From a virus (lineage: Duplodnaviria; Caudoviricetes): DNA of 42,075 nucleotides. Made by a program: the position numbers and the translations under genes. Shown here in pieces: positions 1 through 41,622 of this stretch. Each line of letters starts with the position of its first letter. The first letter of the stretch is position 1. The stretch spans positions 1 through 42,075 of the IMG/VR virus record IMGVR_UViG_3300048670_000359; one strand, given 5' to 3'. The notes beneath the pieces were generated by a model. The model was not told the origin of the DNA. It saw only the letters and a program-made list of their open reading frames with translations, and made no database searches.

Positions 1-1337
1 GCTGTTGGATAAATGTGTTGGTGATCAGCGCGAGCTGCAAATGTACTTAGCCCCACAACGGCACTTGTAGTCAGCGCAGCGGGGGCAGTGGTAGCAATCC
101 CAGCAATTTGCAAAGTTGAAAGCGCGCCAATTTGCGCTGCTGTTGGGAAAATGTGTTGATGATCTGCTCTTGCAGCAGAAGTTGATACACCAACAACGGC
201 AGTTGATGACAAAGCGGCTGGCGCAGTTGTCGCCAAAGGTGCGCCCCCAGATGCCGCAATAGATGACAGAGCGGTTACTTGGCCTTGAGCATTGATGGAC
301 AGCACAGGAATTTCTGTTGCACTGCCAATGTTGCTCTGGGCAGTGGTAAGCGAAGCCAACGCAATTGTGCCGCTGCCTGTAATTGTGCCACCGTCAAGTC
401 CAGTTCCGGCAGTGATGCTGGTCACTGTGCCGCCTGCTGTGCCGCTAATTGGAGCAGAGCCAAGTGCGGTGACACGGCCTTTGGCGTCGATGCTTAGCAC
501 GGGCACAACAGTGCTGCTGCCCACGTTGTTCTGAGCAGTTGTAATTGCTGCCAGCGTGCCAGTAACAGTTCCAGGCCCAGTGGCCGTAACGTCACCAGTA
601 AGCCCTGACAGTGCGCCCACCTGAGTTGCCGTTGGATAAGCGTGCTGATGATCTGCGCGAGCGGCAAACGTAGATGTGCCAACCGTTCCAGAAGCAGCAA
701 GTGCAGATGCGGCAGTGGAAGACAAGCCAGCAATCTGGGCTGTCGTAAGAGCTGGATTGGCTGCTGTGGCCAACGAAGTCACTCGACCCTTGTTGTCAAT
801 GCTGATGACAGGGATAACAGTCGATGATCCAATGTTCGACTGCGCAGATGTAATCGGAGTCAGCGAAGGATTAGGGTAATTCCCCATAAGATCCCCGCTG
901 GCTGCTGCTGTAGCTGCCAGTGCGCCAACATTGGCAGCAGTAGGATAGGGATGCTGATGGTCGGCTCGAGCTGCAAATGTGGATGTCCCAGCAACGCCAG
1001 ATGCAGCAAGAGCAGATGCTGCCGTCGATGACAGGCCGGCAATCTGGTTTGTAGTAAGCGCAGGATTGGCTACTGTGGTCAGGTTTGTGACGCGGCCTTT
1101 GGCGTCAACCGTAAGCACGGGAATTGCAGCCCCAGATCCAATGCCAGTCTGTGCAGTGGTAACAGATGCCAGCGTTGGGTTTGGGTAAGTTCCCGTAAGA
1201 TCGCCACCAGCAACTCCGGCTGGATTGCGAAGAATAAGGCCGGTTACCTTCTTGGTAGCGCCACCCTGGACGATTGGAATGAGTTCCGTTCCGTCTACGC
1301 TGGTTGCCGCTGGAAGTGCAGAGATTTTGTCGCCCAT
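1..1337 (-). CDS. 5' part of the long tail fibre gene (duplicate of 38882-40218), truncated by the window edge
   Basis: Identical to the N-terminal part of the 949-aa ORF 37369..40218. Confidence 0.9.
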   Translation of the reverse strand, partial: MGDKISALPAATSVDGTELIPIVQGGATKKVTGLILRNPAGVAGGDLTGTYPNPTLASVTTAQTGIGSGAAIPVLTVDAKGRVTNLTTVANPALTTNQIAGLSSTAASALAASGVAGTSTFAARADHQHPYPTAANVGALAATAAASGDLMGNYPNPSLTPITSAQSNIGSSTVIPVISIDNKGRVTSLATAANPALTTAQIAGLSSTAASALAASGTVGTSTFAARADHQHAYPTATQVGALSGLTGDVTATGPGTVTGTLAAITTAQNNVGSSTVVPVLSIDAKGRVTALGSAPISGTAGGTVTSITAGTGLDGGTITGSGTIALASLTTAQSNIGSATEIPVLSINAQGQVTALSSIAASGGAPLATTAPAALSSTAVVGVSTSAARADHQHIFPTAAQIGALSTLQIAGIATTAPAALTTSAVVGLSTFAARADHQHIYPT

Positions 1338-1338
1338 A

Positions 1339-1542
1339 TTAGCCTGTTATCAAATTAACGCCACTTTCGTTGGTGAGTCTAAATCCAGCTTCGGTTGCCA
1401 GAAAGTCTCCGCCAACTTGTGTAATGGCAATCTTCTTAAACTGGAAGATCTGATTGCTACCAGAAACTTGAATTCTAGCAAAGTTTTTATTAAACGCCTT
1501 TGCAGGATCTTGATTTCGCTTTCTAATGTATTTGGTGATCAT
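1339..1542 (-). CDS. Small putative tail-fibre adaptor protein (67 aa) with C-terminal LxxExGxxLxxExG motif
   Basis: Fills the gap between the adaptor and tail-fibre genes; ends FLATEAGFRLTNESGVNLITG. Confidence 0.65.
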   Translation of the reverse strand: MITKYIRKRNQDPAKAFNKNFARIQVSGSNQIFQFKKIAITQVGGDFLATEAGFRLTNESGVNLITG

Positions 1543-1544
1543 GC

Positions 1545-2741
1545 TTAGTAGGTGTACACCATGTTCATCCGCTGAATCTGGCCCTGCTGGCGAATTAGCA
1601 CATCAATCTGTTGCTGAACAGCAAACTCAGCCATTGCTTCAAGAGAATCAGCTTCTGTACTGCGCCCCTCAGAGCGCATGAAGTCAGCAGACACAGCATT
1701 TACCAAGTATCCCTTAAAGCGGAATGGAATCCCGCTAATTCTCCAGAATGTGCTTGGATTTGCAGGAGCTGTGCCAGCCGTAGTTGTGGTAAAAGTGTTC
1801 CAGAAGTTTCCGGCTACAGGAAGATTCTTGCTGGGCGGGTTGTACGCTGAACTGCCCTGGCCGGGATCGTAGTAGACCTGTGAGCCAGCAGTATAGGCCA
1901 GCGCCGAGTCGTACCGCGTCCCAAAGAGGAAGGGAGCCACTGCCCGCAACAGAACGAACTTCGCGTTGAAGTTTGCAAACCTAAGCACAAACAAATCTTG
2001 GCTCAGAATCTGTGTGGTTGTGGTTATGTTTGTGTCCAAGTCCGGCATGTTCTCCACCGTGTAAGACTCAGCGCGATTGCGTGTTCCGCTGCGTGGATCT
2101 GCTGTCCAACATCCAGTAGCTTGGCCAGAAACCAAGGCAATTGCTTGCCGGTTGTGCACAAACTCAAGGGTAGATCCGCTAATGGCAGTCCATTGAGGAG
2201 TTCCCCATGGGGCCTGAATAGTAATCTCCGTAATGTACGGGTCCGTAGTCGCGTCACCAACAGAATACTCAAACGTGTATTGCTGTGCAGCAGAAGAAAC
2301 CAACTCGCTATCCTCATTCAAAATGAAGAATGGGTTAATGATGTTTACGTTTGATTCACCAATCGTACCTTTTTGCCAAGCCTGTTCGGTAAAATCCCTG
2401 AGGTATATACGCGGATAGTTTGGATCAAGCGTAATAACTACAGGAATGGTATTTTCTGCATTCTGAAAATACAGAGATTCTCCATTTTCCTGAAGCAACT
2501 CATTGCCATTTTCCAACAACACAGGAATCGGAGCAGCAACTACATTGGAAATGCGCGTGCCAGGCCATAGTTGCTGCACTTCTTGAATATCGGGCCAGTC
2601 TTCCCGATCCCAGATCATGCTTAGCCGGCGGTTCGTGAAGTCACGAATGGCTGCAAATGCCTTGTCATTTAGCGTATTCCGATCCAAGCCAATAAGCTGG
2701 CATGACTCTGCTAGAATTGCGCTAAATGGTACTGTCTTCAT
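1545..2741 (-). CDS. Putative head-tail adaptor / tail tubular protein A-like (398 aa) with inserted beta-rich domains
   Basis: Helical N-terminus (FSAILAESCQLIG...NRRLSMIWDREDWP) and C-terminus (IPFRFKGYLVNAVSADF) resemble podovirus adaptors; lies between capsid and fibre genes. Confidence 0.6.
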   Translation of the reverse strand: MKTVPFSAILAESCQLIGLDRNTLNDKAFAAIRDFTNRRLSMIWDREDWPDIQEVQQLWPGTRISNVVAAPIPVLLENGNELLQENGESLYFQNAENTIPVVITLDPNYPRIYLRDFTEQAWQKGTIGESNVNIINPFFILNEDSELVSSAAQQYTFEYSVGDATTDPYITEITIQAPWGTPQWTAISGSTLEFVHNRQAIALVSGQATGCWTADPRSGTRNRAESYTVENMPDLDTNITTTTQILSQDLFVLRFANFNAKFVLLRAVAPFLFGTRYDSALAYTAGSQVYYDPGQGSSAYNPPSKNLPVAGNFWNTFTTTTAGTAPANPSTFWRISGIPFRFKGYLVNAVSADFMRSEGRSTEADSLEAMAEFAVQQQIDVLIRQQGQIQRMNMVYTY

Positions 2742-3061
2742 TTACTTGGAGGTGTCCACCCTACACTGATTTCCTTAACGCCGCCACTATTAACCTTGCA
2801 CTCTGGATTGTCACGCAAGAACTCATCCATAAATGCTTTGTCATTCCAGCATCCATATCCGAGTTTCTGGCCCCAAAAGTGGTAAGCGGTGCCCGGAATG
2901 GTGGCTATCTTCTGCCCCAAACCCTCCACAGATTTATGCCGCTCATTATTGAACTTTGCGATCTGCTTGGCCTCGACTCTTGCTTGCACCTTGTTGCGTT
3001 CCCAGCCTTTGCGCAGTTCAGCCTCAAGCTGGCCAACCATGTTTTCTGGAATGCTAATCAT
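2738..3061 (-). CDS. Conserved hypothetical protein downstream of capsid (107 aa), allele A
   Basis: ATGA overlaps at both ends; the second allele (41619..41939) differs mostly at synonymous sites, which indicates coding constraint. Confidence 0.85.
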   Translation of the reverse strand: MISIPENMVGQLEAELRKGWERNKVQARVEAKQIAKFNNERHKSVEGLGQKIATIPGTAYHFWGQKLGYGCWNDKAFMDEFLRDNPECKVNSGGVKEISVGWTPPSK

Positions 3062-3294
3062 ACTTTTGCAATGAAAGTTGTGCCAGCCCCAGGAATCCTT
3101 GGCAACCGTCCCTGTGCATCATAAATGCCACTGTAAGGGTTGATCTTGCTTGGCGGCATCGCTGACCCATCTGTGCCCTCAGGGCCGCTGCTGGCCGGCT
3201 TTCTGTTGGATAGTGCCACTAAGTTGGCAGGGGCTTGCACGCCTGTGTATCGGTGAATCAATTCAGGAATAATAGGAATTGGAAGTACAGTCAT
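3058..3294 (-). CDS. Optional Pro/Gly-rich hypothetical protein (78 aa), absent from the second haplotype
   Basis: The ORF coincides almost exactly with the 231-bp segment missing at 41940-41948; its stop overlaps the next start codon (ATGA). Confidence 0.7.
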   Translation of the reverse strand: MTVLPIPIIPELIHRYTGVQAPANLVALSNRKPASSGPEGTDGSAMPPSKINPYSGIYDAQGRLPRIPGAGTTFIAKV

Positions 3295-3319
3295 AAAAAG
3301 TGACTGCTTACGGCAGTCA
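3295..3319 (-). terminator. Rho-independent terminator-like hairpin downstream of the capsid gene
   Basis: Minus strand reads TGACTGC-CGTAA-GCAGTCA-CTTTTT (7-bp stem followed by a U tract). Confidence 0.7.
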
Positions 3320-3371
3320 ATCGGAATCTAGTTGGTTAAAGACTCAATGTTCTTCGTCTTGATGAAATGCC

Positions 3372-3531
3372 CCCAGTCTCTCCTGAGTGTCACACCATTC
3401 GTGGTTGCAATCCACGCACTATTTGGCTAATGGCCGTGTCTGTGGCAGGTGTCGCAGAAAATGTGCCGTCTCTCCGGCTGTCACACCACTTTCTCAGCAC
3501 CACTTATTGTGCCACAGAACGCAGGTGTCGC
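3372..3531 (-). ncRNA. Tandem two-unit structured RNA motif in the capsid 3' region (units 3465-3531 and 3372-3455)
   Basis: Each unit reads GCGACACCUGC-[variable hairpins]-UGGUGUGACA-[stem/GAGAGA/stem]. The terminal stems differ but both pair (GCCG/CGGC versus CUCAG/CUGGG). Confidence 0.65.
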
Positions 3532-13899: not shown

Positions 13900-14577
13900 T
13901 CACAAAAAGGTTAGTTGCTGTTTGTCTGGTTGTTTGCACGCATGAGAGGTCAACAGTGATGTGGTAGGCTGTGCTTTGGACCTTGCCCAAGTTTCTAAAC
14001 CATAGGTTTGTGTTTTGTCTCCACGGTTCCAGCCTGTCCCATCACAGGACTCTACTCCGAGCTGCTCCAACCAGTTTAGTTTTGTGGGTGAATTTACCCG
14101 CAGCACATGCACTCGCGGAAACTCCTTAGCCCACATTTCAACGGTTGCCCACTTCCACTCAGTAGTTCCACCCACACAGATGACATCCGGTTCCAGTTCT
14201 CTCGCCTGCGCAACGCCCATACCATTCTGAACGGCTAGAGCTTTTTGAAATGGAACTTCATCTTTGAATTGATACCACCGCTCAATGGTACGCTCGCCAC
14301 TGCCGATCCAGTCTGGCACGATAGCCCACTGTGGCTTCTGTGTATTTGCATCTGCCCACCGGATCATCTTGCGCCATGCTTCTACATCCCACAGATCTTC
14401 TCGCCACACGTTGTCTTGCTGATCCCAAGCAGCAAAAGCCCCGTTGTCGAGTGCGTAATGGAACCAAGGCCACGGGCCACGCTGAGCCCCAGGTGAGAAC
14501 AGATGACCAATGCGCCCAGTTTCGCGAGCAAGACAATGCCAAAACCAACCCGTTGCGTTAGCAGGCATGACAATCAT
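13900..14577 (-). CDS. TGT/DpdA-like (queuine tRNA-ribosyltransferase-like) TIM-barrel protein (225 aa)
   Basis: YALDNGAF, IVPD, LAVQNG, VGG, VHVLRV and SCDGTGW match the LDSGAF..VQG..GG..H..SxDxxxW motif order of TGT-fold proteins. Confidence 0.55.
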   Translation of the reverse strand: MIVMPANATGWFWHCLARETGRIGHLFSPGAQRGPWPWFHYALDNGAFAAWDQQDNVWREDLWDVEAWRKMIRWADANTQKPQWAIVPDWIGSGERTIERWYQFKDEVPFQKALAVQNGMGVAQARELEPDVICVGGTTEWKWATVEMWAKEFPRVHVLRVNSPTKLNWLEQLGVESCDGTGWNRGDKTQTYGLETWARSKAQPTTSLLTSHACKQPDKQQLTFL

Positions 14578-14813
14578 AGCAACAAATCCTCAATCTCATC
14601 GTGCAGTTGCTCGTTCATTGCATCCTGCTCTTCCATGACTTCAACAGCCCTGTCATTGGCATGTTTTTGACTGTATGCGATAATAAGGCCAACTTCAGTG
14701 TCATACACCCAGGCATTACGCCAGTCAGCACGGCAGCGGATGCCTGACGCAGCGTGCTGCCACTGCGGCGTTGCCCAGTTAATAGCTTGAGGTGGTAGTC
14801 TTTTCATCCCCAT
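14574..14813 (-). CDS. Hypothetical protein (about 77-79 aa)
   Basis: Overlap-coupled to both neighbours. Confidence 0.65.
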   Translation of the reverse strand: MGMKRLPPQAINWATPQWQHAASGIRCRADWRNAWVYDTEVGLIIAYSQKHANDRAVEVMEEQDAMNEQLHDEIEDLLL

Positions 14814-15358
14814 TGTTCTGCCATTGCTTCAGCAATGCCCTTGTAAGTTTCTGAGCGTATCTTCCAGCGGTCTGCACTTGGAGGCAACTTCCACATGCGA
14901 GGCTTTCTGCCATCTACAATGTTTGTGGGATTAAGTTTAGATAGGTTTTTAAGCCACAAGCAGGTTGCCTTTACCTCTCCATGCCCATACTGCCAAGGTT
15001 GCACTGTTTGATCTGGTTTGCGGATTTGAGTCGAAATACACCCAATCGGATTTTCCAAAGCAATCTTTGCTATGTTTGCCTCCAAAAGAAGCTGCACAAA
15101 CTCCAAGGCCTCTTCAGTCTTCGCTGCCCGCTCTGGCCGGCGCTTGTTCCAGTGCAATCCACTGCTGCACAGGTAAGTGCAAGGCGGGTGTGCGATCATT
15201 AGATCCCAGCCATCATTCAGGATATCCCTGACATCACCTTGATAGTGCGGTCCTGGCACATCAGTTGGCAACAAGTCACAAGACATGGCATCGTGTCCGC
15301 GACGAATAAAAGCGTCCCGCACCGTACCGCTATACTCACAGGCAATTAAGATTTTCAT
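14804..15358 (-). CDS. Short phage DNA cytosine-C5 methyltransferase-like protein (184 aa)
   Basis: KILIACEYSG (motif I variant), SCDL, DLMIAHPPCT (catalytic PC) and ENP motif VI. Confidence 0.8.
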   Translation of the reverse strand: MKILIACEYSGTVRDAFIRRGHDAMSCDLLPTDVPGPHYQGDVRDILNDGWDLMIAHPPCTYLCSSGLHWNKRRPERAAKTEEALEFVQLLLEANIAKIALENPIGCISTQIRKPDQTVQPWQYGHGEVKATCLWLKNLSKLNPTNIVDGRKPRMWKLPPSADRWKIRSETYKGIAEAMAEQWG

Positions 15359-17004: not shown

Positions 17005-17583
17005 TTAACTGTTTAGAAATGATGCTGTTCTGCCGTTAAAGCGCATGTGCGTGCTGACTCCACATGGGCCGTTTCGCTGAAAAGGTATACTCACCTTTCT
17101 GCTTTCTTCGCCATCTATTTCGATAGCCATCACGCAAGTAGCGTCCTGCTGAATTGCCCGCGACTCACGGGCTTTTCCTTGCTCGTTGAGTTGAGTGATT
17201 CCAATTACCAAGCAACCCAGCTCTAAGCCCAGCAGGCGCAGCGAGCGAGACACCTCTGCTACCTCACGTTCTCTGGTGCTATCTTTAAGCTCACACCTGA
17301 TGAGTTGAATGTAATCTACAAACATGACGCCCAAGCCCATCGTGCTCTTGCTCATGGCACGCGCCACTGAACAGATAGCCTGGATGTCATAGAGGTCATC
17401 CCTAATGATGAGATTGGAGCGATGCAGCACGTTAAGGGCACGTTGCATTCCGTTCAGTTCATGTTCGGTTTTCACACCTTCGGCCAAGGACCGCAGTGAC
17501 ACGTTGCCAAGGCGTGCCACCAAGCGGTCAATGATTTGGCTGGCTGGCATTTCAAGGCTGATGATCAAGACGCCCTTTTTCAT
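17005..17583 (-). CDS. dnaB: DnaB-like helicase, C-terminal part (H1a to H4) encoded as a separate gene (192 aa)
   Basis: VLIISLEM (H1a), FVDYIQL (Walker B/H2), VSRSLR..ITQLN (H3), RESRAIQQDA (H4) and QRNGP arginine finger; no Walker A. Confidence 0.9.
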   Translation of the reverse strand: MKKGVLIISLEMPASQIIDRLVARLGNVSLRSLAEGVKTEHELNGMQRALNVLHRSNLIIRDDLYDIQAICSVARAMSKSTMGLGVMFVDYIQLIRCELKDSTREREVAEVSRSLRLLGLELGCLVIGITQLNEQGKARESRAIQQDATCVMAIEIDGEESRKVSIPFQRNGPCGVSTHMRFNGRTASFLNS

Positions 17584-17840
17584 TTCTTGAACCTCTTTCC
17601 GTTGTCCTTGCGGATCTCCTGTGAGTTATGTGTCTTATGGCCTTTGTAAACTGTCACCAAAAAGTCCACGAAGACTTCCTCTGTAGACATGTGCATAGGC
17701 TGCGTAGCCAACTCATCAATGAGACTCTGACAGTTTTCCTTGCTCCCGATAAGCAGGACTTCCTGCACGATCTTTGGCCTAGGCAGGTGCTCGTAGCCGT
17801 CATTGGTGATGCTGCGCCGGAGTGCAACGTACTCCCTCAT
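17580..17840 (-). CDS. Hypothetical protein (86 aa)
   Basis: ATGA-coupled on both sides; GAGGAGG Shine-Dalgarno upstream. Confidence 0.75.
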   Translation of the reverse strand: MREYVALRRSITNDGYEHLPRPKIVQEVLLIGSKENCQSLIDELATQPMHMSTEEVFVDFLVTVYKGHKTHNSQEIRKDNGKRFKK

Positions 17841-18016
17841 TCCAGTGCCTCCTCTCGTATTGGCTCACGCCTTGCAGTTGCTAAACCTTCCACAAGCTCA
17901 ATCCGTTCACTGTCCACAATAACAGTACAGTGAGGATGACAATTGTTATGGAGCCACTGCATAAGCGGCATCGCGGCTTCTCTAAGAGCTATAATTTGAT
18001 CTGGTGTAATTATCAT
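17837..18016 (-). CDS. Hypothetical phage protein (59 aa; below the ORF track cutoff)
   Basis: Translated by hand: MIITPDQIIALREAAMPLMQWLHNNCHPHCTVIVDSERIELVEGLATARREPIREEALE; GGAGGAGG upstream. Confidence 0.75.
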   Translation of the reverse strand: MIITPDQIIALREAAMPLMQWLHNNCHPHCTVIVDSERIELVEGLATARREPIREEALE

Positions 18017-18047
18017 TCCCCCTCCTCCATTTGTTCGTTAGTCATAG

Positions 18048-18812
18048 CTAGTACCTCGGCAGGATAAGCTTGAACTCCGGCAATCCAGGCCACGCCTGCG
18101 CAGTCTGACACCGCTTGAAGTAAGCCAGCTCCTCCTCGATTTTGGCGTTGGCATTCTCAAGGATCTCGCTGCCGGCACGCATGAACTGCGCCAGATGCGG
18201 AGCCTCAGTGTCCACCACAAGGAACCAGAAGCCTGGAGCCTCGCTCAGGCCGGCTGCTTGCTGGAAGCCGTACTGATACCAAGCGGCTTGCACATCGTAC
18301 CGAAAACGGTGAAAGCTGCTGTCAAAGTTGCGGATGTCATTGGTAGTCTTGAGGTCCACTAAACAGATCTCGCCATTGATGGTGGCGATCATGTCAGGCC
18401 GGCCCTTACACTTGATGCCGTCCCGTTCCCAGAAGAGGCTCGTCTCAATGTTGTCATCTTCATAGGCGCAGTGCTCCATAAGCGGTTCACATGCCGCAGA
18501 GCAGCCGGTAATTACAGCAGCCTCGTCCCTGGTCACGATGATCTTTCCAAGGTTTTCCTCGCAGAAGAGCGCCCACTCTTCCTTGCCGGCCTTAGTGCGC
18601 TTGTCCACATCAGGCCCAATGGCAAAGTCTGTGCGCCCCTCAAGCACTAACGAGTGAATGAGCGTGCCCATCTCCATGGAGCGGGATGGCTTCCACTCCT
18701 GCGCCTTGCGGTGCAGGTAGTAGGATGGAGCAACCGCAAAGTTGTCCAGTTCGTGTTTGCTGAGCCCGTCCATCTGGCGGTACTCGGTCATGGGTGTGTT
18801 TCGTAGGATCAT
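18048..18812 (-). CDS. PD-(D/E)xK exonuclease, RecE/ExoVIII (DUF3799)-like (254 aa)
   Basis: LSKHELD, MGTLIHSLVLE, DKRTKAGKE, KGRPD, VDLKTT and YDVQAAWY motifs. Confidence 0.88.
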   Translation of the reverse strand: MILRNTPMTEYRQMDGLSKHELDNFAVAPSYYLHRKAQEWKPSRSMEMGTLIHSLVLEGRTDFAIGPDVDKRTKAGKEEWALFCEENLGKIIVTRDEAAVITGCSAACEPLMEHCAYEDDNIETSLFWERDGIKCKGRPDMIATINGEICLVDLKTTNDIRNFDSSFHRFRYDVQAAWYQYGFQQAAGLSEAPGFWFLVVDTEAPHLAQFMRAGSEILENANAKIEEELAYFKRCQTAQAWPGLPEFKLILPRY

Positions 18813-19276
18813 TTGATTAGGTTTCTGATTTTGTTGTGTAGGTCTTCGATGGTGCCATCGTTGACTACCTCTATATCGGCAGCTACCTCACACTGCTTTA
18901 GCTCAGATTCGTGATTTTCTGCGATTTGTTCAGGCCGGACGATTCGGACGATGATGCCACCCTTGCTGCGGACGTAGTCAGCTTCGTTCTGGAAGCGGAC
19001 ATCTGTGTAGACAATGCCATCTCTAAGTCTGTCTCGCACAAGCTGCTTGTTTAAGTACTGAATCCAAAATCTGGGATTGTAGCGCCTAGCTGCCATTCCC
19101 AAGTCTTGCAGCAGCCTTCTTCCAGCTTCGTCTTTTTCTCCATCCCAGCCAAAGTAAAAAGCCAAAGATTTAAGCTCATCAGCAAAAGCAGCTCTGCGAT
19201 AACCACATTTTACAAGCCCTTTTGCAGCCGTGTCCTTGCCGGAACCTGCCAGCCCAATGAGTCCGATGTGCTTCAT
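18809..19276 (-). CDS. Deoxynucleoside monophosphate kinase (155 aa)
   Basis: IGLIGLAGSGKDT P-loop, AFADELK, RRLLQDLG, DVRFQNE and HESE motifs. Confidence 0.88.
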   Translation of the reverse strand: MKHIGLIGLAGSGKDTAAKGLVKCGYRRAAFADELKSLAFYFGWDGEKDEAGRRLLQDLGMAARRYNPRFWIQYLNKQLVRDRLRDGIVYTDVRFQNEADYVRSKGGIIVRIVRPEQIAENHESELKQCEVAADIEVVNDGTIEDLHNKIRNLIK

Positions 19277-19584
19277 GGGTTCACCTCCAGTGCGCCACAG
19301 GCCACCACAGAACCATGTTCATTGCGTATCAGCTTTGCTGGACTGGCAACGTCCTTGCGGTTTGGCACATGAATTCGCACCAATCCGGCAACGATGAACA
19401 TGGTATCAGGCTGAGCCTCTGGCAGGTTACTAATGCCAAGCGTCTTGCTGGACATAAGCGGAACGCCATTAGCAGACCCAACCTGGGACATCTGCGTGTT
19501 AACCCTGGCGATGTAGCCGGATGGCTCAATTGAGTCATGTCCGCTGATTTTTATTGTGTGAGGAGTAAGATTAATGAGTTTCAT
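19273..19584 (-). CDS. Conserved hypothetical phage protein of the INLTPH type (103 aa)
   Basis: MKLINLTPH..EPSGYIARV..LPE..IV..RKDV.SP..RNEHG.V motif pattern. Confidence 0.8.
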   Translation of the reverse strand: MKLINLTPHTIKISGHDSIEPSGYIARVNTQMSQVGSANGVPLMSSKTLGISNLPEAQPDTMFIVAGLVRIHVPNRKDVASPAKLIRNEHGSVVACGALEVNP

Positions 19585-20239
19585 TAAGAATATTTGCGAT
19601 AACGTTAAGTGCTAACATGGTTTTTCCTGATTTTTCTGGCCCACCGATAACAAGGAAATCCCCGTACCGGATGGGCGTTAGGTTATCCAGCTTGTCGTAG
19701 CCTGTCCGAATTCTTTGTGTAAGATCATCACCCTCTTGGTAGCGAGTGATCGCGTTCATAATAAGTGCCTGAGTGTCTAGCTTAGCCGGCGGACTCATCT
19801 CTCCTCGAATCCGCTCGATGCCCGTGGATAGGCCGTTCACCAGCTCAGCAGTGGAAACGTCCGCTGAATCAGCGCACTGCATCCCTTCTGCCAGCATCTT
19901 GATAACCGCTCGCCGCTTGCAGGCAGCTTTGACGATGTCCATCAATTCGCGGCAGGCGTTAGCCACCGGCATCAGCGTGTAAAGATCGGTCAGTTCGTGA
20001 AACTGAACCTTCTCATTGCGCTCACGCAACCGCTCAAAGATGACGCGCACATCACAAACAGCACGCCTGGACACTTGATCCAAGACTACCTCAACTACGT
20101 TCCTGCTTAAGCCGTCAAAGATGAACGATGGATTAAATCCAGCGTCACTCATCGAGTTAAGAACTAACTCAGGATGGTTTAATGTGATTGAGGCTAGACC
20201 GCGTTCGGATTCAACAGGGGTGGGAACCTTCATTACCAA
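19571..20239 (-). CDS. dnaB: DnaB-like helicase, N-terminal part (N-domain, linker and Walker A; 222 aa)
   Basis: PTPVESERGL (DnaB N-terminus), IRTGYDKLDNLT, GDFLVIGGPEKSGKTMLALNV; stops one helix after Walker A. Confidence 0.9.
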   Translation of the reverse strand: MVMKVPTPVESERGLASITLNHPELVLNSMSDAGFNPSFIFDGLSRNVVEVVLDQVSRRAVCDVRVIFERLRERNEKVQFHELTDLYTLMPVANACRELMDIVKAACKRRAVIKMLAEGMQCADSADVSTAELVNGLSTGIERIRGEMSPPAKLDTQALIMNAITRYQEGDDLTQRIRTGYDKLDNLTPIRYGDFLVIGGPEKSGKTMLALNVIANILNETH

Positions 20240-20904
20240 CCCTGCTGGGAAGTGTTGGCAGAATCAAGCAGTGAACCAGGCCGGCCTTTAAGCGGCTGAC
20301 GCTTTTCACCCTGCGCACGGCACAGCCAGGCGTTGAGAAATCGTCCCATTCCGCGACGAGTCTTGCGCTTGGTCGGATTGCTCTTAATCCACAGGCAAGC
20401 CAGCGTCAACTCACGGTCCACCATTGTCTGACCAAAGGCTGAGCAGAAGTCTGAGTACAGATTTTGCGGTATGGCATACATGCCGTCTTGGCAAGGAAAT
20501 TGGTCACGGTTCTCTTCTCCCCCCTCACCTTCCCCACCCTCTTCCTTCCTTTCCCCCATACCCCCTATCCTACCATCTCCCTCCCCATCCTCACCCACCC
20601 TCTTCTCTCCAGTGGTATCGCACGCGAGAAAATCGGCAAGAAAAGCAGAACCAAGCGTATCTTCAACCATTTCCTCAACTGACGAGTAACGCTTTCCAGT
20701 TGGCTGAAGATCTTCCTTAGTGACCTCATCACCGAAACAATCAACCAGCCCGCTAGCTGCCGGAACGGCCGATTCTGATGCCACTTGTGGTTCGACAGGG
20801 GTCACCGGAGCGGACGGCATAGAAACGGCAGTAGAATCGCCCATGGGAATGCTGACCTCGGTGATGGTGCCTGAGATGTGTGTAATTTTTATAGTTATGT
20901 TCAC
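20233..20904 (-). CDS. Replication initiator / replisome-organiser-like protein (223 aa)
   Basis: Immediately upstream of dnaB-N; central G/E-rich linker; C-terminal WIKSNPTKRKTRRGMGRFLNAWL as seen in phage O-like proteins. Confidence 0.6.
   Translation of the reverse strand: MNITIKITHISGTITEVSIPMGDSTAVSMPSAPVTPVEPQVASESAVPAASGLVDCFGDEVTKEDLQPTGKRYSSVEEMVEDTLGSAFLADFLACDTTGEKRVGEDGEGDGRIGGMGERKEEGGEGEGGEENRDQFPCQDGMYAIPQNLYSDFCSAFGQTMVDRELTLACLWIKSNPTKRKTRRGMGRFLNAWLCRAQGEKRQPLKGRPGSLLDSANTSQQGW
20510..20611. other. G-free polypyrimidine tract inside the initiator gene; candidate replication origin element
   Basis: 102 nt with no G on the plus strand. Confidence 0.5.
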
Positions 20905-27432: not shown

Positions 27433-27706
27433 AAAGTGATCTCCTAGCTTCTAAACAAAGTGGACTTCCTGCCTTAAACTGACTGCAAGCCTGTGGACGG
27501 TTTTGGTAAATTGTACACGAAACTGATTTGCCAACAACTCCAGACAATGCAGCACACCTGTTGTTGCATGTTTTAAGCAGTGGGTAATCATCTCGAATGA
27601 GTTCTGGTGGTATTCCTGCGGCGTCAGACCTGTCCCGGCGAAGCACCGGCCAGCTCCACTTGTGACTGCAACAAGCCCCGCAAGTCCTGCAATCCAGATC
27701 GGACAT
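27416..27706 (-). CDS. YkgJ/FliB-like CxxCxxCC Fe-S/Zn cluster protein (96 aa; start reassigned to ATG 27706)
   Basis: DCRTCGACC...RCAAL...CTIYQNRPQACSQF...C signature. Confidence 0.85.
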   Translation of the reverse strand: MSDLDCRTCGACCSHKWSWPVLRRDRSDAAGIPPELIRDDYPLLKTCNNRCAALSGVVGKSVSCTIYQNRPQACSQFKAGSPLCLEARRSLYGKIN

Positions 27707-28463
27707 TACAGTAGTCAAGGACGGGCTGCTCATGGAGGACATGCTCATGCAGGTTCTCTACTTGAATCCTGAGCTTGGGGCAATCCACAAACTTCCCAAG
27801 TCGCTTGTCTACACAGTTAAAGCAGGCATGAACATAGTCAGAGTTCATGTGTTTGTTTGGCTTGCTGGCCACATCCTCGTCATAGCGATTCCTATCAAAA
27901 GGAACGTGGTTGCTTTTTAGATACGAAGCCACATCAGCATCAGTCCAGTTCCTGAGCGGAAACCACATTTCAGTATTTGGGCCAAGAATCTTTTTGTCCA
28001 CTTCAAGCGGAATAGCCCCGGTAAGCGGATCTTCGTCACTGCTCTTGTGGCCACACAGTAAGACATCAAAGTCAGACACAATATGTCCCTTTGGGCGACT
28101 CAGCCACTCTTTGCCGCAAACCCAGTGATTTGCCGGGTCAAATGGTTCAGTGCCTCGCATGACCTTGATATGTCCATCCCCAAGCGAGTATGTCTCACAG
28201 ACATCTAAGCGTCCATTCCCGTGCGTTAGTGCCACAGACACAGGAACCCAGTCATGGACCGTCATGTTGTACAGCTCTTGAATCCTGTGGTGGAAGGCGT
28301 ACTTGTGCGACAGGAACGGCAGCTTGAAGTGAATCACCTCAATATCCGGGCGTACCCTTCTGGCCATGTCGAGCAGCACAGTACTGTCTTTCCCGCCGCT
28401 CCAAAGAACGGCAGGACGTTTTGCGCGATTAAGGGCCAGCCAAATTACAGATTGAGCCTTCAT
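27624..28463 (-). CDS. PP-loop adenine-nucleotide alpha-hydrolase, PAPS-reductase-like (279 aa)
   Basis: VLWSGGKDS PP-loop, FPLRNWTDADV and C-terminal ACFNC..CPK; lacks the C-terminal ECGLH motif of CysH. Confidence 0.8.
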   Translation of the reverse strand: MKAQSVIWLALNRAKRPAVLWSGGKDSTVLLDMARRVRPDIEVIHFKLPFLSHKYAFHHRIQELYNMTVHDWVPVSVALTHGNGRLDVCETYSLGDGHIKVMRGTEPFDPANHWVCGKEWLSRPKGHIVSDFDVLLCGHKSSDEDPLTGAIPLEVDKKILGPNTEMWFPLRNWTDADVASYLKSNHVPFDRNRYDEDVASKPNKHMNSDYVHACFNCVDKRLGKFVDCPKLRIQVENLHEHVLHEQPVLDYCNVRSGLQDLRGLLQSQVELAGASPGQV

Positions 28464-30709
28464 TAGAATACAGCAGCAGCACCTATTGCCGCGCCACCAA
28501 GAGATCCTAGCATTCCTGATTGACTAGAAGATTTAGCAGCATTCGCCTGAGCTTGAGCAGCAGCAAGGCCCATCTGCGCGTTGTAGGCCCCGTAGATACT
28601 GCCCATGCCAGTCTGCGACTCTGGGTTAAAATACTGAGGACCAGCGTTCTGCTGCATTGCCAGCCCCATCTGCTGTGATTGACCTTCAACTCCCTGAAGG
28701 ATTGGCTGTTTGTAGAACGCTTGCAAGATCGGAGCCTGAGCCTGCTGCAATTGCGACATTGCGCCAGCTCCCAACTGAGCCTGAGCGGCCTGGGCCTGGG
28801 TGCTTGCCATGTAGGCCTGCTGTTCTGCTGAGCCACGCTGCAAGGCCTGATTGAATGCGGCCTGCTGAGTACCAGCACCAAGTTGTTCGCGGCCCATGGC
28901 TTGATTGTAGGCCTGTTCCTGAGCACCCTGCATAAGCTGCTGTTGGCCCATCAATTGGCCATAACGCTGCTGCTGAATTTGCTGGCCAAGGTTTTCTCTG
29001 CCCATAGCCTGCTCAAACCCAGCTCCTTGCGTACCCATGGCCTGAGCGTACCGCTGAGCCTGTGTCTGTTGCCCAAATACATCTTGAGTTTGAGCCTGGC
29101 CAAAGCCTGCGCCTTGCGTGCCCATTGCTTGCTGATAACGCTGAGCCTGAAGCTCTTGAGCCATTGTATCTTTGGCCTGAGCCTGACCAAAACCAGCGCC
29201 CTGAGTTCCCATGGCTTGCTGGTAACGCTGCGCTTGAAGCTGCTGCGCCATTGTATCTTGAGCTTGAGCTTGGCTAAACCCAGCGCCTTGAGTCCCCATA
29301 GCTTGCTGGTAGCGTTGAGCCTGAAGCTGTTGGTTCATTACATCCCGTGTCTGGGCTTGGCCAAAAGCTTGCTGCTGGAGTCCTAGTCCGTAGTCAATTC
29401 CAAGCTGCTGACGCTGCAATGATTGCTGAAGTGCCGGCTGGTAAATGCCCTGAATCGTGCCAGCAGCTTGAGCGGCATTTTGCAGGCGTTGCTGATATCG
29501 CTGATTTGCAACATCCGCTCGATTTAAGATTTCAGCATTTACTGCCTGACCTCCGAGCGCAGTGCCTCTAGCAGCATAAGCAGCCCTAGCAGATTGATCT
29601 GCCATGCGCTGCTCTTCAGGCGTGAGGCTTTTTCCAGCAGAAAGCTCAGCCTGTGACTGCTGTGCCAGCATGTCTGCGTATTGCCCCATGCCAGGCATTG
29701 CGGCAATGTACTGATTTACGGAATTTTGATCAAGATTCTGAATATTTGAGGCCAGCTTGGGGCCGGCCACTTTGCCCATGTTTGAAGCAATTGGAACTGC
29801 CCCAGCGATTTGAGCGGCAGCTGCTGCTGTTTGAGCAGCATTCATTTGCTGGGCAGTTGGCACTGCTCCGGCGGTTTTTGCTGCTGCTGCTGCCGTCTGG
29901 GCAGTTGCCATGTTTTTAGCAGTGGGCACTGCTCCAGCAGTTGCGGCAGCAGCCGCTGCCGTCTGGGCAGCGCTCATCTGCTGAGCGCCTGGCACTGCTC
30001 CCGCTGTTGCAGCAGCCGCTTGAGCTGTTTGAGCATTCTGCAAATAACCAGCTTCCTGCGGCATTCCGGCTCCATACGCCACATTCGTGGGATTGAATCC
30101 CTGAACTGCGTTAACGTATCCACCAGCAGGAGTTTCCTGCAACCCAGAGTAGGGCTGCTGCGGAGCCATCTGTTGCTGACCTTGCATTCTTTGCCGCATC
30201 TGGCCAAAGAAATTGCCGCCGCCTTGCTGCTGCGCAGGCATCTGTTGCTGCTGCGCAGGCCTCTGTGCACCATAAGGATCTCTTACGCCCACTTGGTAGG
30301 AGTTAAATTCAGGCCGATTCATTGACTGCGCCATTGCGGTCTTGGCCAACTGGCCGGCAGATCCTACAGCTTCAGCGTATCCAGGAGTCAGGGCATTAAA
30401 GGCCTGCTGGTACTGCGGCAGGGCTGTCTGAAGCTGCCCTAGCTCAGCCTGTCTGTTGGCTTGATTGTAGGCAGCTTCTATTTCGGCAATCTGAGGATAG
30501 CCCTTCTTGGCCATATCCAAAGACTGCTGGGCCTGATAGGCCTGCTGCTGAGCTTGAAGTTGATTGTAAAGCGGTTGGTATTTGGCTTCAGACTCGTAAA
30601 CCTGAGGAGCCATGTCCACCTGAGCCTGAAGAATGCTCTTCATCGACTCCTGGTAACTTGGAGCCGCTGGTGCCTGAATAGTTGTAGATCCTCCTCCGTA
30701 TGATCCCAT
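28463..30709 (-). CDS. Gln/Ala-rich pilot / DNA-ejection protein (748 aa) with internal tandem repeats
   Basis: MGSYGGG N-terminus, coiled-coil Q/A composition, hydrophobic Gly-rich C-terminus GMLGSLGGAAIGAAAVF; first ejection-type gene after the nozzle. Confidence 0.65.
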   Translation of the reverse strand: MGSYGGGSTTIQAPAAPSYQESMKSILQAQVDMAPQVYESEAKYQPLYNQLQAQQQAYQAQQSLDMAKKGYPQIAEIEAAYNQANRQAELGQLQTALPQYQQAFNALTPGYAEAVGSAGQLAKTAMAQSMNRPEFNSYQVGVRDPYGAQRPAQQQQMPAQQQGGGNFFGQMRQRMQGQQQMAPQQPYSGLQETPAGGYVNAVQGFNPTNVAYGAGMPQEAGYLQNAQTAQAAAATAGAVPGAQQMSAAQTAAAAAATAGAVPTAKNMATAQTAAAAAKTAGAVPTAQQMNAAQTAAAAAQIAGAVPIASNMGKVAGPKLASNIQNLDQNSVNQYIAAMPGMGQYADMLAQQSQAELSAGKSLTPEEQRMADQSARAAYAARGTALGGQAVNAEILNRADVANQRYQQRLQNAAQAAGTIQGIYQPALQQSLQRQQLGIDYGLGLQQQAFGQAQTRDVMNQQLQAQRYQQAMGTQGAGFSQAQAQDTMAQQLQAQRYQQAMGTQGAGFGQAQAKDTMAQELQAQRYQQAMGTQGAGFGQAQTQDVFGQQTQAQRYAQAMGTQGAGFEQAMGRENLGQQIQQQRYGQLMGQQQLMQGAQEQAYNQAMGREQLGAGTQQAAFNQALQRGSAEQQAYMASTQAQAAQAQLGAGAMSQLQQAQAPILQAFYKQPILQGVEGQSQQMGLAMQQNAGPQYFNPESQTGMGSIYGAYNAQMGLAAAQAQANAAKSSSQSGMLGSLGGAAIGAAAVF
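28955..29375 (-). repeat. 87-bp (29-aa) tandem repeat, about 5 copies
   Basis: QQLQAQRYQQAMGTQGAGFxQAQxxDxMx units recur at 29041, 29128, 29215 and 29302, with a degenerate fifth copy. Confidence 0.9.
29780..30036 (-). repeat. 66-bp (22-aa) tandem repeat, 4 copies
   Basis: AQTAAAAAATAGAVPTAxxMxA units at 29795, 29861, 29927 and 29993. Confidence 0.9.
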
Positions 30710-30712
30710 AAA

Positions 30713-31147
30713 TTACTCCTTATCGTATTTCCTGACTTGATCTATGGCTCGCATATGCGCCCATCCTCCAATTAAAAAAGCTACATGAGAGTATATTGCA
30801 AAGTCACTGCACTTCAAGACAGAAGAGTGGCCCTTGCCTTGTGCAGCCGCCTCCTCGCCTGTTACCCATCCATGACAGGCATTTAGAATAAGCGGAAGTA
30901 AACTTGTTTTGTGTTGTTGGAAAAATAAGTTGCAGGAAATTGTTTCAATAAACAAAAACAACTCCCTAGAAACCTCATCCAAAAGCACCGGCTGATCTCT
31001 GTCAACAAGATCGTCTATAATGTGGCAAAAGTTCCAGCATCTCCATAAGAAGCTAAAGGCTTGCTCGTTCCCATTTGCAATAAACAGCATGATGCTTTTT
31101 GCATTTGGGTTCTTGGCTATTTCTTCTGGCTTGTTGCAATAATCCAT
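30713..31147 (-). CDS. Small helical DDxxD protein, isoprenoid-synthase/prenyltransferase-like (144 aa)
   Basis: HIIDDLVDRD resembles the first aspartate-rich motif of class I isoprenoid synthases (HxxxLxxDDxxD..D); all-helical pattern. Confidence 0.5.
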   Translation of the reverse strand: MDYCNKPEEIAKNPNAKSIMLFIANGNEQAFSFLWRCWNFCHIIDDLVDRDQPVLLDEVSRELFLFIETISCNLFFQQHKTSLLPLILNACHGWVTGEEAAAQGKGHSSVLKCSDFAIYSHVAFLIGGWAHMRAIDQVRKYDKE

Positions 31148-31929
31148 TATTTCTCGTATAAAAATTCTGATATTTTAATCGGAGCAAACGGCACTTCATT
31201 TTTATGAAAATTACCAAGTCCGTTATTAACTAAATTGATCCAAGTATCAAAGTCCAAAATTGCATTCATGTTTGGATTACACTCAATAATCTTGAATCCG
31301 GCATTTGCGGCAGCCTTTAAGTGATACCAAGTTGGGTAACACATGTAGTGCCAAACATCCTGCAACTCTTTAATTTGACGTGCCTGCTGTGGGTCTAGGT
31401 CATCAACAGCGCACATGTCTGAAATTAACAACCTGCCACCTGGCTTTAGCACCCTGTATACCTCGCTTAAAACATCTACAAGCGGCCTATATCCGATGCT
31501 TTGGTAAAAGTACACAAAGTCAAACAGGTCATTGCCAAATGGCATCTCATCGTATGACCCTACGGAAAAAGCGCAATTTATTGGTGCGCTGGCTTTAGCA
31601 ATTTCAACTTGTTCTGGAGAAATGGTTAAGCCAGTAAATGCTGCTTCAGGATGCTTTTTGCCAAAGAAGTTTGTTACATGGCCAATGCCACATCCTGCAT
31701 CCAGAACCCTCTTTGCTCCATCCTGCCAATGTCTGCAATTTAGTATTTCAAGATGCTCTTCAAAGTTGTTTGAAAACAACCCAGACTGAAAAACTGGATA
31801 GTTGTTATCAACATAAATTGATGTACAGCCGTCCCAATACTCTTTAAGCAGATCGTTGTTTTTGCATTTGTTTTTATAATAAATTGAATGAGCTAAAAAA
31901 TCTGAGAATTTTGATATGTTTTGTTTCAT
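31147..31929 (-). CDS. Class I SAM-dependent small-molecule methyltransferase (260 aa), AT-rich
   Basis: VLDAGCGIG, GLTISPEQ, MPFGNDLFDFV and EVYRVLKPGGRLLISD; no DNA-methyltransferase catalytic motif. Confidence 0.9.
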   Translation of the reverse strand: MKQNISKFSDFLAHSIYYKNKCKNNDLLKEYWDGCTSIYVDNNYPVFQSGLFSNNFEEHLEILNCRHWQDGAKRVLDAGCGIGHVTNFFGKKHPEAAFTGLTISPEQVEIAKASAPINCAFSVGSYDEMPFGNDLFDFVYFYQSIGYRPLVDVLSEVYRVLKPGGRLLISDMCAVDDLDPQQARQIKELQDVWHYMCYPTWYHLKAAANAGFKIIECNPNMNAILDFDTWINLVNNGLGNFHKNEVPFAPIKISEFLYEK

Positions 31930-37368: not shown

Positions 37369-40218
37369 TTAAGCAACGTAAGTTCCAGATGCAGTAAATT
37401 TAAGAATGGTATTCGATCCAGAGGTTGTAACAGTAGGCGATCCAGTAACAGTGCCCGTGTAATTTGCAGTTGGAAGCGAAAGAATAATAACTCCAGATCC
37501 ACCACTTCCACCTGTTCCACTAGCACCTCCAACCGCACCGCCGCCGCCGCCTGTATTTGCAGTTCCAGAAATGGCATTTGCGTTAATTGCTCCATTTCCG
37601 CCACCTCCGAGTCCACCTGTTCCCGCTGCTCCACCAGCGCATGATCCACCGCCTCCACCAGCGTAATAAACAGCAGTCCCTGTAATGCTGGATTGAAGTC
37701 CAATTCCACCATTTCCTCCAATTGCAATAGCACTTGGATAAGTTCCATCTCCTCCTACGCTTCCAGCACCACCACCACCACCAGTTGGAGACGAAGCCAA
37801 ACCAGGAGTAGCTCCTCCAGCATTTCCTTGGCCAAAAGTTCCAGCACCACCTGAAACATTATTGAATGTAGCATTTCCATTTGCGCCAGCTCCACCTCCG
37901 CTTCCTCCGCTTGTTCCTGGTGTTCCATCTGGACTTGAGCTTATTCCAGATTTTCCTCCACCAATACAAGTAATTGTAGTGATTGTTGTGGAAGAAATTG
38001 AAGAATTAGATCCAGAAACTGCCGCACCTGGGCCTGTGTTTCCGGCTCCTCCTGCTCCAATTGTAATTGTATATGTTGCTCCTTGAAGTAAATTGATTGC
38101 TCCAGTCCGCATCCCTCCAGCACCGCCGCCGCCTGAGCTTGCGCCACCACCGCCAGCAACAATTAACGCAGTAGCTGGGGTAAATCCAATTAGTGGAGCA
38201 GCAGCCGCAGCTACAGATGAAAGTGCTGTTACTCTGCCTTTGGCATCTATGCTTAGCACTGGAATTTGTGTACTGCTTCCAACATTTGTTTGAGCCGTAG
38301 TAATAGCTGCAAATGTGGGATTTGGATAACTTCCGGTCAGATCGCCTCCAGCAGTAGCAGTTGCACCAAGCGCACCAATCTGTGCTGCTGTTGGATAAAT
38401 GTGTTGGTGATCAGCGCGAGCTGCAAATGTACTTAGCCCCACAACGGCACTTGTGGTAAGTGCGGCTGGCGCAGTTGTAGAAAGTCCAGCAATCTGATTT
38501 GTGGTAAGGGCAGAAAATGCAGTTGTAGATAAACTTGTAACCCTGCCTTTAGCATCAATGCTAAGCACTGGAATAGCAGACGCACTTCCTACATTTGTTT
38601 GCGCAGTTGTAATTGCTGCTAATGCAGATGATGCCGCACCTGGGCCTGTTGCCGTTACATCTCCAGTTAAAGACGTAATTGCAGTCGTAGTCGTTGCTGC
38701 AATAGCAGTTGTTGTAAGAGATGTTACTCGTCCTTTTGCATCAATGCTTAAAACAGGAATTACAGATCCACTTCCCACATTGCTCTGAGCTGTAGTAATT
38801 GCGGTCAATGTTGGATTGGGATAATTTCCTGCAAGGTCTCCACTTGCTGCCGCAGTAGCCGCAAGCGCACCAACATTTGCTGCTGTTGGATAAATGTGTT
38901 GGTGATCAGCGCGAGCTGCAAATGTACTTAGCCCCACAACGGCACTTGTAGTCAGCGCAGCGGGGGCAGTGGTAGCAATCCCAGCAATTTGCAAAGTTGA
39001 AAGCGCGCCAATTTGCGCTGCTGTTGGGAAAATGTGTTGATGATCTGCTCTTGCAGCAGAAGTTGATACACCAACAACGGCAGTTGATGACAAAGCGGCT
39101 GGCGCAGTTGTCGCCAAAGGTGCGCCCCCAGATGCCGCAATAGATGACAGAGCGGTTACTTGGCCTTGAGCATTGATGGACAGCACAGGAATTTCTGTTG
39201 CACTGCCAATGTTGCTCTGGGCAGTGGTAAGCGAAGCCAACGCAATTGTGCCGCTGCCTGTAATTGTGCCACCGTCAAGTCCAGTTCCGGCAGTGATGCT
39301 GGTCACTGTGCCGCCTGCTGTGCCGCTAATTGGAGCAGAGCCAAGTGCGGTGACACGGCCTTTGGCGTCGATGCTTAGCACGGGCACAACAGTGCTGCTG
39401 CCCACGTTGTTCTGAGCAGTTGTAATTGCTGCCAGCGTGCCAGTAACAGTTCCAGGCCCAGTGGCCGTAACGTCACCAGTAAGCCCTGACAGTGCGCCCA
39501 CCTGAGTTGCCGTTGGATAAGCGTGCTGATGATCTGCGCGAGCGGCAAACGTAGATGTGCCAACCGTTCCAGAAGCAGCAAGTGCAGATGCGGCAGTGGA
39601 AGACAAGCCAGCAATCTGGGCTGTCGTAAGAGCTGGATTGGCTGCTGTGGCCAACGAAGTCACTCGACCCTTGTTGTCAATGCTGATGACAGGGATAACA
39701 GTCGATGATCCAATGTTCGACTGCGCAGATGTAATCGGAGTCAGCGAAGGATTAGGGTAATTCCCCATAAGATCCCCGCTGGCTGCTGCTGTAGCTGCCA
39801 GTGCGCCAACATTGGCAGCAGTAGGATAGGGATGCTGATGGTCGGCTCGAGCTGCAAATGTGGATGTCCCAGCAACGCCAGATGCAGCAAGAGCAGATGC
39901 TGCCGTCGATGACAGGCCGGCAATCTGGTTTGTAGTAAGCGCAGGATTGGCTACTGTGGTCAGGTTTGTGACGCGGCCTTTGGCGTCAACCGTAAGCACG
40001 GGAATTGCAGCCCCAGATCCAATGCCAGTCTGTGCAGTGGTAACAGATGCCAGCGTTGGGTTTGGGTAAGTTCCCGTAAGATCGCCACCAGCAACTCCGG
40101 CTGGATTGCGAAGAATAAGGCCGGTTACCTTCTTGGTAGCGCCACCCTGGACGATTGGAATGAGTTCCGTTCCGTCTACGCTGGTTGCCGCTGGAAGTGC
40201 AGAGATTTTGTCGCCCAT
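37369..40218 (-). CDS. Long tail fibre with modular repeats and C-terminal glycine-rich domain (949 aa)
   Basis: KISALP N-terminus; 7x IPVLSIDAKGRVT-type and 5x ARADHQH repeats; GDLxGxYPNP; C-terminal LIVAGGGG..GGSGVII domain. Confidence 0.85.
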   Translation of the reverse strand: MGDKISALPAATSVDGTELIPIVQGGATKKVTGLILRNPAGVAGGDLTGTYPNPTLASVTTAQTGIGSGAAIPVLTVDAKGRVTNLTTVANPALTTNQIAGLSSTAASALAASGVAGTSTFAARADHQHPYPTAANVGALAATAAASGDLMGNYPNPSLTPITSAQSNIGSSTVIPVISIDNKGRVTSLATAANPALTTAQIAGLSSTAASALAASGTVGTSTFAARADHQHAYPTATQVGALSGLTGDVTATGPGTVTGTLAAITTAQNNVGSSTVVPVLSIDAKGRVTALGSAPISGTAGGTVTSITAGTGLDGGTITGSGTIALASLTTAQSNIGSATEIPVLSINAQGQVTALSSIAASGGAPLATTAPAALSSTAVVGVSTSAARADHQHIFPTAAQIGALSTLQIAGIATTAPAALTTSAVVGLSTFAARADHQHIYPTAANVGALAATAAASGDLAGNYPNPTLTAITTAQSNVGSGSVIPVLSIDAKGRVTSLTTTAIAATTTTAITSLTGDVTATGPGAASSALAAITTAQTNVGSASAIPVLSIDAKGRVTSLSTTAFSALTTNQIAGLSTTAPAALTTSAVVGLSTFAARADHQHIYPTAAQIGALGATATAGGDLTGSYPNPTFAAITTAQTNVGSSTQIPVLSIDAKGRVTALSSVAAAAAPLIGFTPATALIVAGGGGASSGGGGAGGMRTGAINLLQGATYTITIGAGGAGNTGPGAAVSGSNSSISSTTITTITCIGGGKSGISSSPDGTPGTSGGSGGGAGANGNATFNNVSGGAGTFGQGNAGGATPGLASSPTGGGGGAGSVGGDGTYPSAIAIGGNGGIGLQSSITGTAVYYAGGGGGSCAGGAAGTGGLGGGGNGAINANAISGTANTGGGGGAVGGASGTGGSGGSGVIILSLPTANYTGTVTGSPTVTTSGSNTILKFTASGTYVA
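38383..38949. repeat. Exact 72-bp direct repeat within the tail fibre gene (38383-38454 and 38878-38949)
   Basis: tgctgctgttggataaatgtg...cggcacttgt is identical in both copies, 495 bp apart. Confidence 0.85.
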
Positions 40219-41621: not shown

Positions 41622-41622
41622 T
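40426..41622 (-). CDS. Duplicate of the 398-aa adaptor protein
   Basis: Identical translation to 1545..2741. Confidence 0.6.
   Translation of the reverse strand: MKTVPFSAILAESCQLIGLDRNTLNDKAFAAIRDFTNRRLSMIWDREDWPDIQEVQQLWPGTRISNVVAAPIPVLLENGNELLQENGESLYFQNAENTIPVVITLDPNYPRIYLRDFTEQAWQKGTIGESNVNIINPFFILNEDSELVSSAAQQYTFEYSVGDATTDPYITEITIQAPWGTPQWTAISGSTLEFVHNRQAIALVSGQATGCWTADPRSGTRNRAESYTVENMPDLDTNITTTTQILSQDLFVLRFANFNAKFVLLRAVAPFLFGTRYDSALAYTAGSQVYYDPGQGSSAYNPPSKNLPVAGNFWNTFTTTTAGTAPANPSTFWRISGIPFRFKGYLVNAVSADFMRSEGRSTEADSLEAMAEFAVQQQIDVLIRQQGQIQRMNMVYTY

Follow-up and report, generated by a model that had tools for sequence, protein, structure and literature searches.

The phage genome IMGVR_UViG_3300048670_000359 of IMG/VR, analysed here over positions 1 to 42,075 (the window, 42,075 nucleotides (nt) long), encodes the helicase DnaB in two genes, and the only DnaB of this phage is very probably a two-chain protomer made, without an intein, from two conserved genes. 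The split is real, conserved and probably functional, and such a gene in pieces, with the cut running through the P-loop active site, is unusual. That the two chains associate and act as a helicase is predicted from their sequences. An earlier reading of the letters alone, without database searches (hereafter the sequence-only reading), had described the two open reading frames (ORFs), and both were recovered when the minus strand was re-read at 19571 and 17583. The first gene, N (19571..20233, minus strand, 220 amino acids (aa)), encodes the collar domain, the linker, strand beta1 (19643-19660, minus strand), the Walker A motif GPEKSGKT (19619-19642, minus strand), the P-loop helix and a four-residue tail, and its product ends in ...GKTMLALNVIANILNETH* at 19571. 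The second gene, C (17005..17583, minus strand, 192 aa), starts with MKKGVLIISLEM at 17583, where its start overlaps the upstream stop as ATGA. It carries six motifs, all on the minus strand: SLEM with the catalytic Glu (17548-17559), Walker B (17311-17328), the REREV loop (17260-17274), TQLN (17185-17196), RESRAIQQDA (17140-17169) and the QRNG arginine finger (17068-17079). The halves are 1987 nt apart and sum to 412 aa; the figure of about 414 aa given earlier counted N from a TTG at 20239 (222 aa), while translation probably begins at the ATG at 20233, where the start and an upstream stop overlap (TAATG).

The two chains were said to be co-linear with DnaB, with no gap or duplicated part, and every model that we aligned agrees. 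N and C cover positions 2-45 and 49-254 of PF03796, 163-378 and 381-578 of phrog_19, 37-222 and 224-432 of the 435 positions of TIGR00665, and 3-215 and 220-411 of the intact relative P0123, with which N shares 28% identity over 214 aa. PF00772, the model of the N-terminal domain, gave no match at E 0.01 in the window scan. The break lies where it had been placed, between the P-loop helix, after which N ends, and the strand of the catalytic Glu, before which C begins. Joined end to end, the chains would have 20 residues plus the tail between GKT and SLEM, and intact relatives have 18-24 (38 of the 40 fitting the pattern). When a profile built from 121 intact DnaB proteins was run against the six frames of the window, the N and C ORFs were the only matches, and neither this profile nor the Pfam and PHROG scans found a further helicase in the window. 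The usual K-x-R finger has another residue in place of its Lys (F/Y/W/I-Q-R), and this Lys is likewise missing in the intact relatives P0123, P0125 and P0126. An AlphaFold2 model of C alone reached a mean pLDDT (predicted local distance difference test) of 75, with values of 40-59 beyond residue 133, and Foldseek returned DnaB as its best match (template modelling score 0.67, root-mean-square deviation about 12 A). At 17286, the C gene of the window lacks one Gly codon after Walker B that most relatives carry (192 versus 193 aa); the sequence in run X5, one of the sequencing runs discussed below, has the extra codon.

The search of related contigs for the same breakpoint that the sequence-only reading had proposed showed that the cut is a property of the whole clade. 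We collected relatives from the best 80 of 379 matches to C, plus matches based on N, and examined 88 contigs. Both halves were present in 82 of the 88, the cut was the same in 82/82, and in the remaining six the available stretch lacked one of the halves. In an enlarged set, all 87 contigs in which N and C are both complete had the same split, the distance between them ranging from 1303 to 3785 nt and N identity going down to 39%; since these 87 include many near-copies, they correspond to 60 distinct junction pairs and to 23 rows under 90% identity. A more distant group (L249-L255), about 40% identical in N and 63% in C, has the identical split. In trees built with 40 intact relatives the split N sequences formed one group (support 95), and so did the split C sequences (support 90). 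Walker A, as G[EP][TE]KSGKT, was found in 87/87 N sequences and the six C motifs in 94/94 C sequences. The first codon of C, noted earlier as an ATGA-coupled start of its own, is ATG in 87/87 contigs, and it abuts or overlaps an upstream stop in 72. Between the halves there is always a core of three genes, encoding a Crn4-like protein (the INLTPH ORF), a RecE-like nuclease and an 86-aa protein, whereas accessory genes vary. L205, which carries an intact P0123-type gene at the contig start, has none of the spacer genes downstream. Two protein records, P0124 and P0276, describe a 226-aa C-type DnaB with the N-terminus MNILIVSLEM that is sister to the split clade, and by sequence they may represent a deeper or independent member with a split gene.

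Strong purifying selection acts on N as well as on C. No internal stops were found in 81 N and 81 C sequences, and the median ratio of nonsynonymous to synonymous substitution rates (dN/dS) was 0.050 for N (388 pairs), 0.040 for C (759 pairs) and 0.027 for the part of N from linker to P-loop, the pairs not being independent; the neighbouring genes gave 0.046 (RecE) and 0.081 (SSB-like). Relaxed selection, named beforehand as a result that would speak against the split, was thus not seen, and misassembly fared no better. Contigs of runs X1, perhaps the run of origin, and X5, from a different study, bridge the N stop, and an X5 contig spans C into RecE. A joint from 19571 to 17583 that skips the spacer was not listed in any of four runs. 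That dnaB is dead and decaying, or split only by an error of assembly, is an explanation that can accordingly be given practically no weight. The messy terminal overlap of the window contig and the lack of a single contig, among those listed in the runs, that spans the whole stretch speak for it; it is refuted by the dN/dS values and by 87 contigs that keep the same cut down to 39% identity, and both junctions are bridged by contigs of another study.

We also compared how the genes of this region have diverged. The distance correlation between N and C was 0.70, the highest of 15 gene pairs (18 dereplicated loci; top in 897 of 1000 subsamples), while the correlations of N with RecE and of RecE with C were 0.35 each, though RecE lies between N and C. 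This signal of co-inheritance is suggestive only.

Fused single-chain forms provided a further clue. P0296 and P0345 are two protein records, one of them on a 40,139-bp contig, of a 431-aa DnaB in which the P-loop helix is connected to the following strand by a five-residue AGGAT linker. They form the only in-clade fused cluster among the 51 and 80 matches of our searches for longer proteins. Their C part is 71% identical to C of the window and 92-94% identical to P0343, a protein of 196 aa that starts with MKKG as split C chains do; their N part is 44% identical to N of the window and 62-66% to the nearest split N. Both the N and the C tree place them within the split forms (support 99), and a split-only clade was rejected by the approximately unbiased (AU) test on the C tree (p = 0.0225). 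They are likely the product of a re-fusion, and possibly a relict of the ancestral form; in either case the halves are parts of one enzyme. In an AlphaFold2 model of fused P0296, which served as the control for the model of C alone and was built with only two alignment rows for the N part, that part was unfolded (pLDDT 50). The low values in C beyond residue 133 would agree with the lack of a central strand, but given this control we draw no conclusion from them.

Could the two products be joined into one chain after all, by RNA splicing, ribosome bypass, DNA excision or an unknown protein ligation? The fused length would be normal, in the window one GAA codon stands close to the N end and another directly before the C start, and introns and inteins are described as frequent near Walker A in phage helicases (PMC2677866). 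The absence of intein motifs and intron hallmarks reported earlier held up in wider searches: there were no surplus residues relative to P0123 and no intein family match, Rfam gave no match at E <= 1, and a homing endonuclease candidate, an HNH gene, lay between the halves in 1/87 spacers (L085; 29 of 48 accessory-ORF representatives scanned). The N tail beyond the P-loop helix is 0-26 aa long and unconserved (0 aa in 7/87), C has no extension, and neither half has acquired an assembly tail. The frame from N to the next gene varies (62/23/2 among the 87 contigs), the gene preceding C differs from lineage to lineage, and the longest word common to both junctions is in frame in only 19/87. Matched codons for a bypass were found in 35 of the 60 distinct junction pairs against 35.2 under random re-pairing, with no codon common to all. 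Synonymous sites are barely more conserved at the junctions than elsewhere (0.68 versus 0.65 and 0.74 versus 0.68), and the junction DNA is not conserved, so that fixed splice junctions are not found. The sequence AATGAAA does occur at both junctions of the window, where joining would be out of frame as stated before, but it recurs at both in only 2/87 contigs, and we rejected it as a recombination site. A gene-packed and highly diverged group I or II intron at the junction is still conceivable, if improbable. Because the N tail, the frame and the junction codons vary, bypass codons are at the level of chance and the ATG of C is invariant, C is most simply read as a protein with a translation start of its own, and we regard joining into one chain as highly improbable.

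The halves might instead act apart or with the host enzyme, N poisoning or recruiting host DnaB or primase, for example, and C having a separate role. Phage proteins that sequester host DnaB are known, such as lambda P, and N and C are freely exchanged among close relatives. Such separate roles are nevertheless very unlikely, as Walker A is invariant and part of the slowest-evolving portion of N, yet useless without Walker B; C retains every catalytic motif despite having no P-loop; the clade contains a fused form; and a second helicase was not found in the window. It is also improbable, if a little less so, that a spacer protein, either the 86-aa or the Crn4-like one, is a third subunit or a chaperone for assembling the split helicase. 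Both lie between the halves in 87/87 contigs while other genes come and go, and the 86-aa protein belongs to no known family; however, RecE is just as fixed, so conserved gene order alone explains their presence, the Crn4-like protein has catalytic residues of its own, and the halves lack nothing. Several results also weigh against the two-chain protomer that we favour. Among supported tree splits the pair N-C showed 0 conflicts, but so did four other pairs, and among the seven closest relatives the N-C distance correlation was -0.03. On the N tree, the AU test did not reject a split-only clade (p = 0.45). The finger Lys is replaced by Phe, Tyr, Trp or Ile, and helicase activity of this subfamily is a prediction; binding of N to C and unwinding of DNA are likewise steps that we infer. 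The naturally two-chain RecA-fold enzyme proposed by the sequence-only reading nonetheless gains from the clade-wide split, the purifying selection, the intact motifs, the separate start of C, the lack of a splicing or recoding signal and the fused form.

In the arrangement that we propose, the cut lies in the surface loop after the P-loop helix, and two unspliced chains, made from what appears to be one coupled operon, would fold into one working subunit. The collar, the linker and the strand and helix of Walker A would come from N, and the remainder of the fold from C. With the cut at this place, N retains strand 1 and the P-loop with its helix, so that its strand has to enter the C sheet; it would slot into the middle of that sheet, whose strand order in DnaB we take to be 2-3-4-1-5. 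The arginine finger and the linker of DnaB act on the neighbouring subunit. Each ATP site would thus combine Lys204 of N, Glu11 and Asp90 of C and Arg170 of the neighbouring C, the working subunits would build a 6+6 ring, and added tails would not be required for assembly. The order 2-3-4-1-5 is the one given for type II P-loop folds (10.64898/2026.08.08.743454). The split probably arose once, when the three-gene block (Crn4-like, RecE-like, 86-aa ORF) would have come into the surface loop, and one lineage has probably reversed it by re-fusion. Whether it is also adaptive is a more speculative matter, and we think it rather unlikely: collar/P-loop chains and motor chains would form a 12-chain helicase that closes around DNA only if both kinds of chain are available. 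Activation could then be timed or need no loader, or the helicase could escape host sensors, and the helicase gene would contain a hotspot of anti-defence genes (Crn4-like, Tad2-like, Mom, Lar). If the chains assemble, this would be a P-loop ATPase whose Walker A motif sits on a different polypeptide from its catalytic Glu, Walker B and arginine finger and which needs neither ligation nor docking tails, and a natural case of fragment complementation for a ring motor. Collar and motor mutations could then be mixed per subunit and helicase loading by assembly could be tested directly, with the near-identical fused form as a ready control.

All five genes that had been listed between the halves are present in the window (all minus strand), while only three of them belong to the invariant core. 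Next to N, with its start overlapping the N end, is the 103-aa INLTPH ORF (19273..19584), followed by a deoxynucleoside monophosphate kinase (18809..19276; PF21448, phrog_139), which is accessory and occurs in 30/87 contigs, the RecE or exonuclease VIII-like PD-(D/E)xK nuclease (18048..18812; PF12684, phrog_412, NF007259), a 59-aa accessory ORF (17837..18016; phrog_4621), found between the halves in 1/87 (the window only) and elsewhere in relatives, and the 86-aa ORF (17580..17840), whose stop overlaps the C start here. The last had no Pfam, PHROG or NCBIfam match and carries a conserved RR..LPRPK motif. The INLTPH ORF, previously recognized only by that motif, is by sequence a homologue of the Crn4 ring nucleases: its profile matched Crn4b (PDB 9r7b) with E 1e-11 over positions 2-99, essentially full length, and the catalytic equivalents are kept in the family as Thr (90/90), His9 (82/90, replaced in 8/90) and Arg87 (90/90). 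In Crn4 the His and Arg are described as essential, and phage copies are suggested as possible anti-CRISPRs (Chi 2025, PMC12830947). In contrast to Crn4, the INLTPH ORF lies in a phage replication module and lacks the Ser-Arg ligand contacts (S91/R92 of Crn4a), an invariant Arg standing three residues later as read from the alignment; as these contacts are not kept, cyclic oligoadenylates are no more than a possible substrate. Crn4 is given as present in 11 of 28,137 phage genomes (PMC12830947), whereas the Crn4-like ORF is a constant gene of this entire uncultured clade. Atlas clusters with 430, 216 and 66 members, most of them viral, also resemble this ORF. The family is, judging by its sequences, a candidate anti-CRISPR or anti-CBASS (cyclic oligonucleotide-based antiphage signalling system) family much larger than the published count, and the clade offers a large family of viral Crn4-like proteins that can be assayed as nucleases of this kind. 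Other accessory genes in the spacers encode a Tad2-like protein (weak match; L071:6321-6725), Mom (L055:7267-8001), Lar (L125:2663-2968), Thy1 (L125:2827-3633) and the HNH protein (L085:6382-6801), and a 428-aa ORF without a Pfam family was seen in 16 loci (L066:5444-6727). Upstream of N and coupled to its start, a 223-aa ORF (20233..20904, minus strand) is present in 81/82 loci; it falls in unnamed Atlas clusters with a weak DUF7833 lead, and from its position it is possibly a replication initiator.

The window represents a circular phage genome of ~38.9 kb, as bases 1-2686 are repeated at 38882. Comparing 1-3419 with 38882-42075, the terminal overlap is identical over 2686 bases, then ~90% alike, and beyond this a match of 127 bases is displaced by 225 bases; two variants seem to be present at the contig ends. 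By Pfam and PHROG matches, the phage has a capsid and a portal of the SU10 type as well as a terminase, and all of these are encoded on the minus strand. Sequencing runs that hold at least half of the window are freshwater metagenomes. In the bacterial genome collection, of which 53 out of 64 parts were scanned, the sole close match was a phage-like contig, L125, in a Pedosphaera (Verrucomicrobiota) bin, a weak hint at the host, and among 50,697 cultured phage records there was no near match (best C 35%, N none). Genes resembling a queuine tRNA-ribosyltransferase (weak), a DNA methyltransferase, a PAPS reductase and an S-adenosylmethionine (SAM) methyltransferase lie at 13900-15358, 27624-28463 and 31147-31929 and possibly serve DNA or surface modification, and a 748-aa Gln/Ala-rich protein contains tandem coding repeats of 87 and 66 nt at 28893-30035. 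Promoter and terminator scans did no better than chance.

Our searches of an open-access library listed no intein-free split DnaB, and the closest systems each share part of the arrangement. With DnaB and other helicases of superfamily 4 (SF4; E. coli DnaB 6kza, SPP1 G40P 3bh0, TIGR00665) the window proteins share domain order and motifs, including collar, linker, Walker A, catalytic Glu, Walker B, the H3 Gln, H4 and the arginine finger, and the C model is closest to DnaB; however, all solved relatives listed are one chain, whereas the window has two genes and a replaced finger Lys, and in the clade all motifs stand on one chain only in P0296/P0345. Fractured gp41 helicase genes with split inteins (Dassa 2009, PMC2677866) are likewise described as a phage replicative helicase in two genes, with an intervening gene and purifying selection, but there split-intein halves re-ligate the chain, mostly with a homing endonuclease, and neither is part of the DnaB split. 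Intein-free split replication enzymes are known in T4 topoisomerase genes 39/60 (mobA) and in gp43A/gp43B of Aeromonas phage 25/44RR, the latter reported to co-purify and to be active (PMC2988022). As described there, they differ in fold, involve homing endonucleases or an untranslated spacer, and are not cut between Walker A and Walker B. In Aeromonas phage Aeh1, NrdA-a and NrdA-b (Friedrich 2007; Crona 2010, PMC3045599) are an essential phage enzyme in two genes with active-site residues on both chains, unspliced and active by non-covalent assembly, much like the arrangement predicted here for DnaB. There the cut is ascribed to the homing endonuclease mobE and the new tails are reported as essential (PMC3045599), whereas the split DnaB is a ring helicase with no homing endonuclease in its core spacer, with unconserved tails and with a split that extends over a whole clade.

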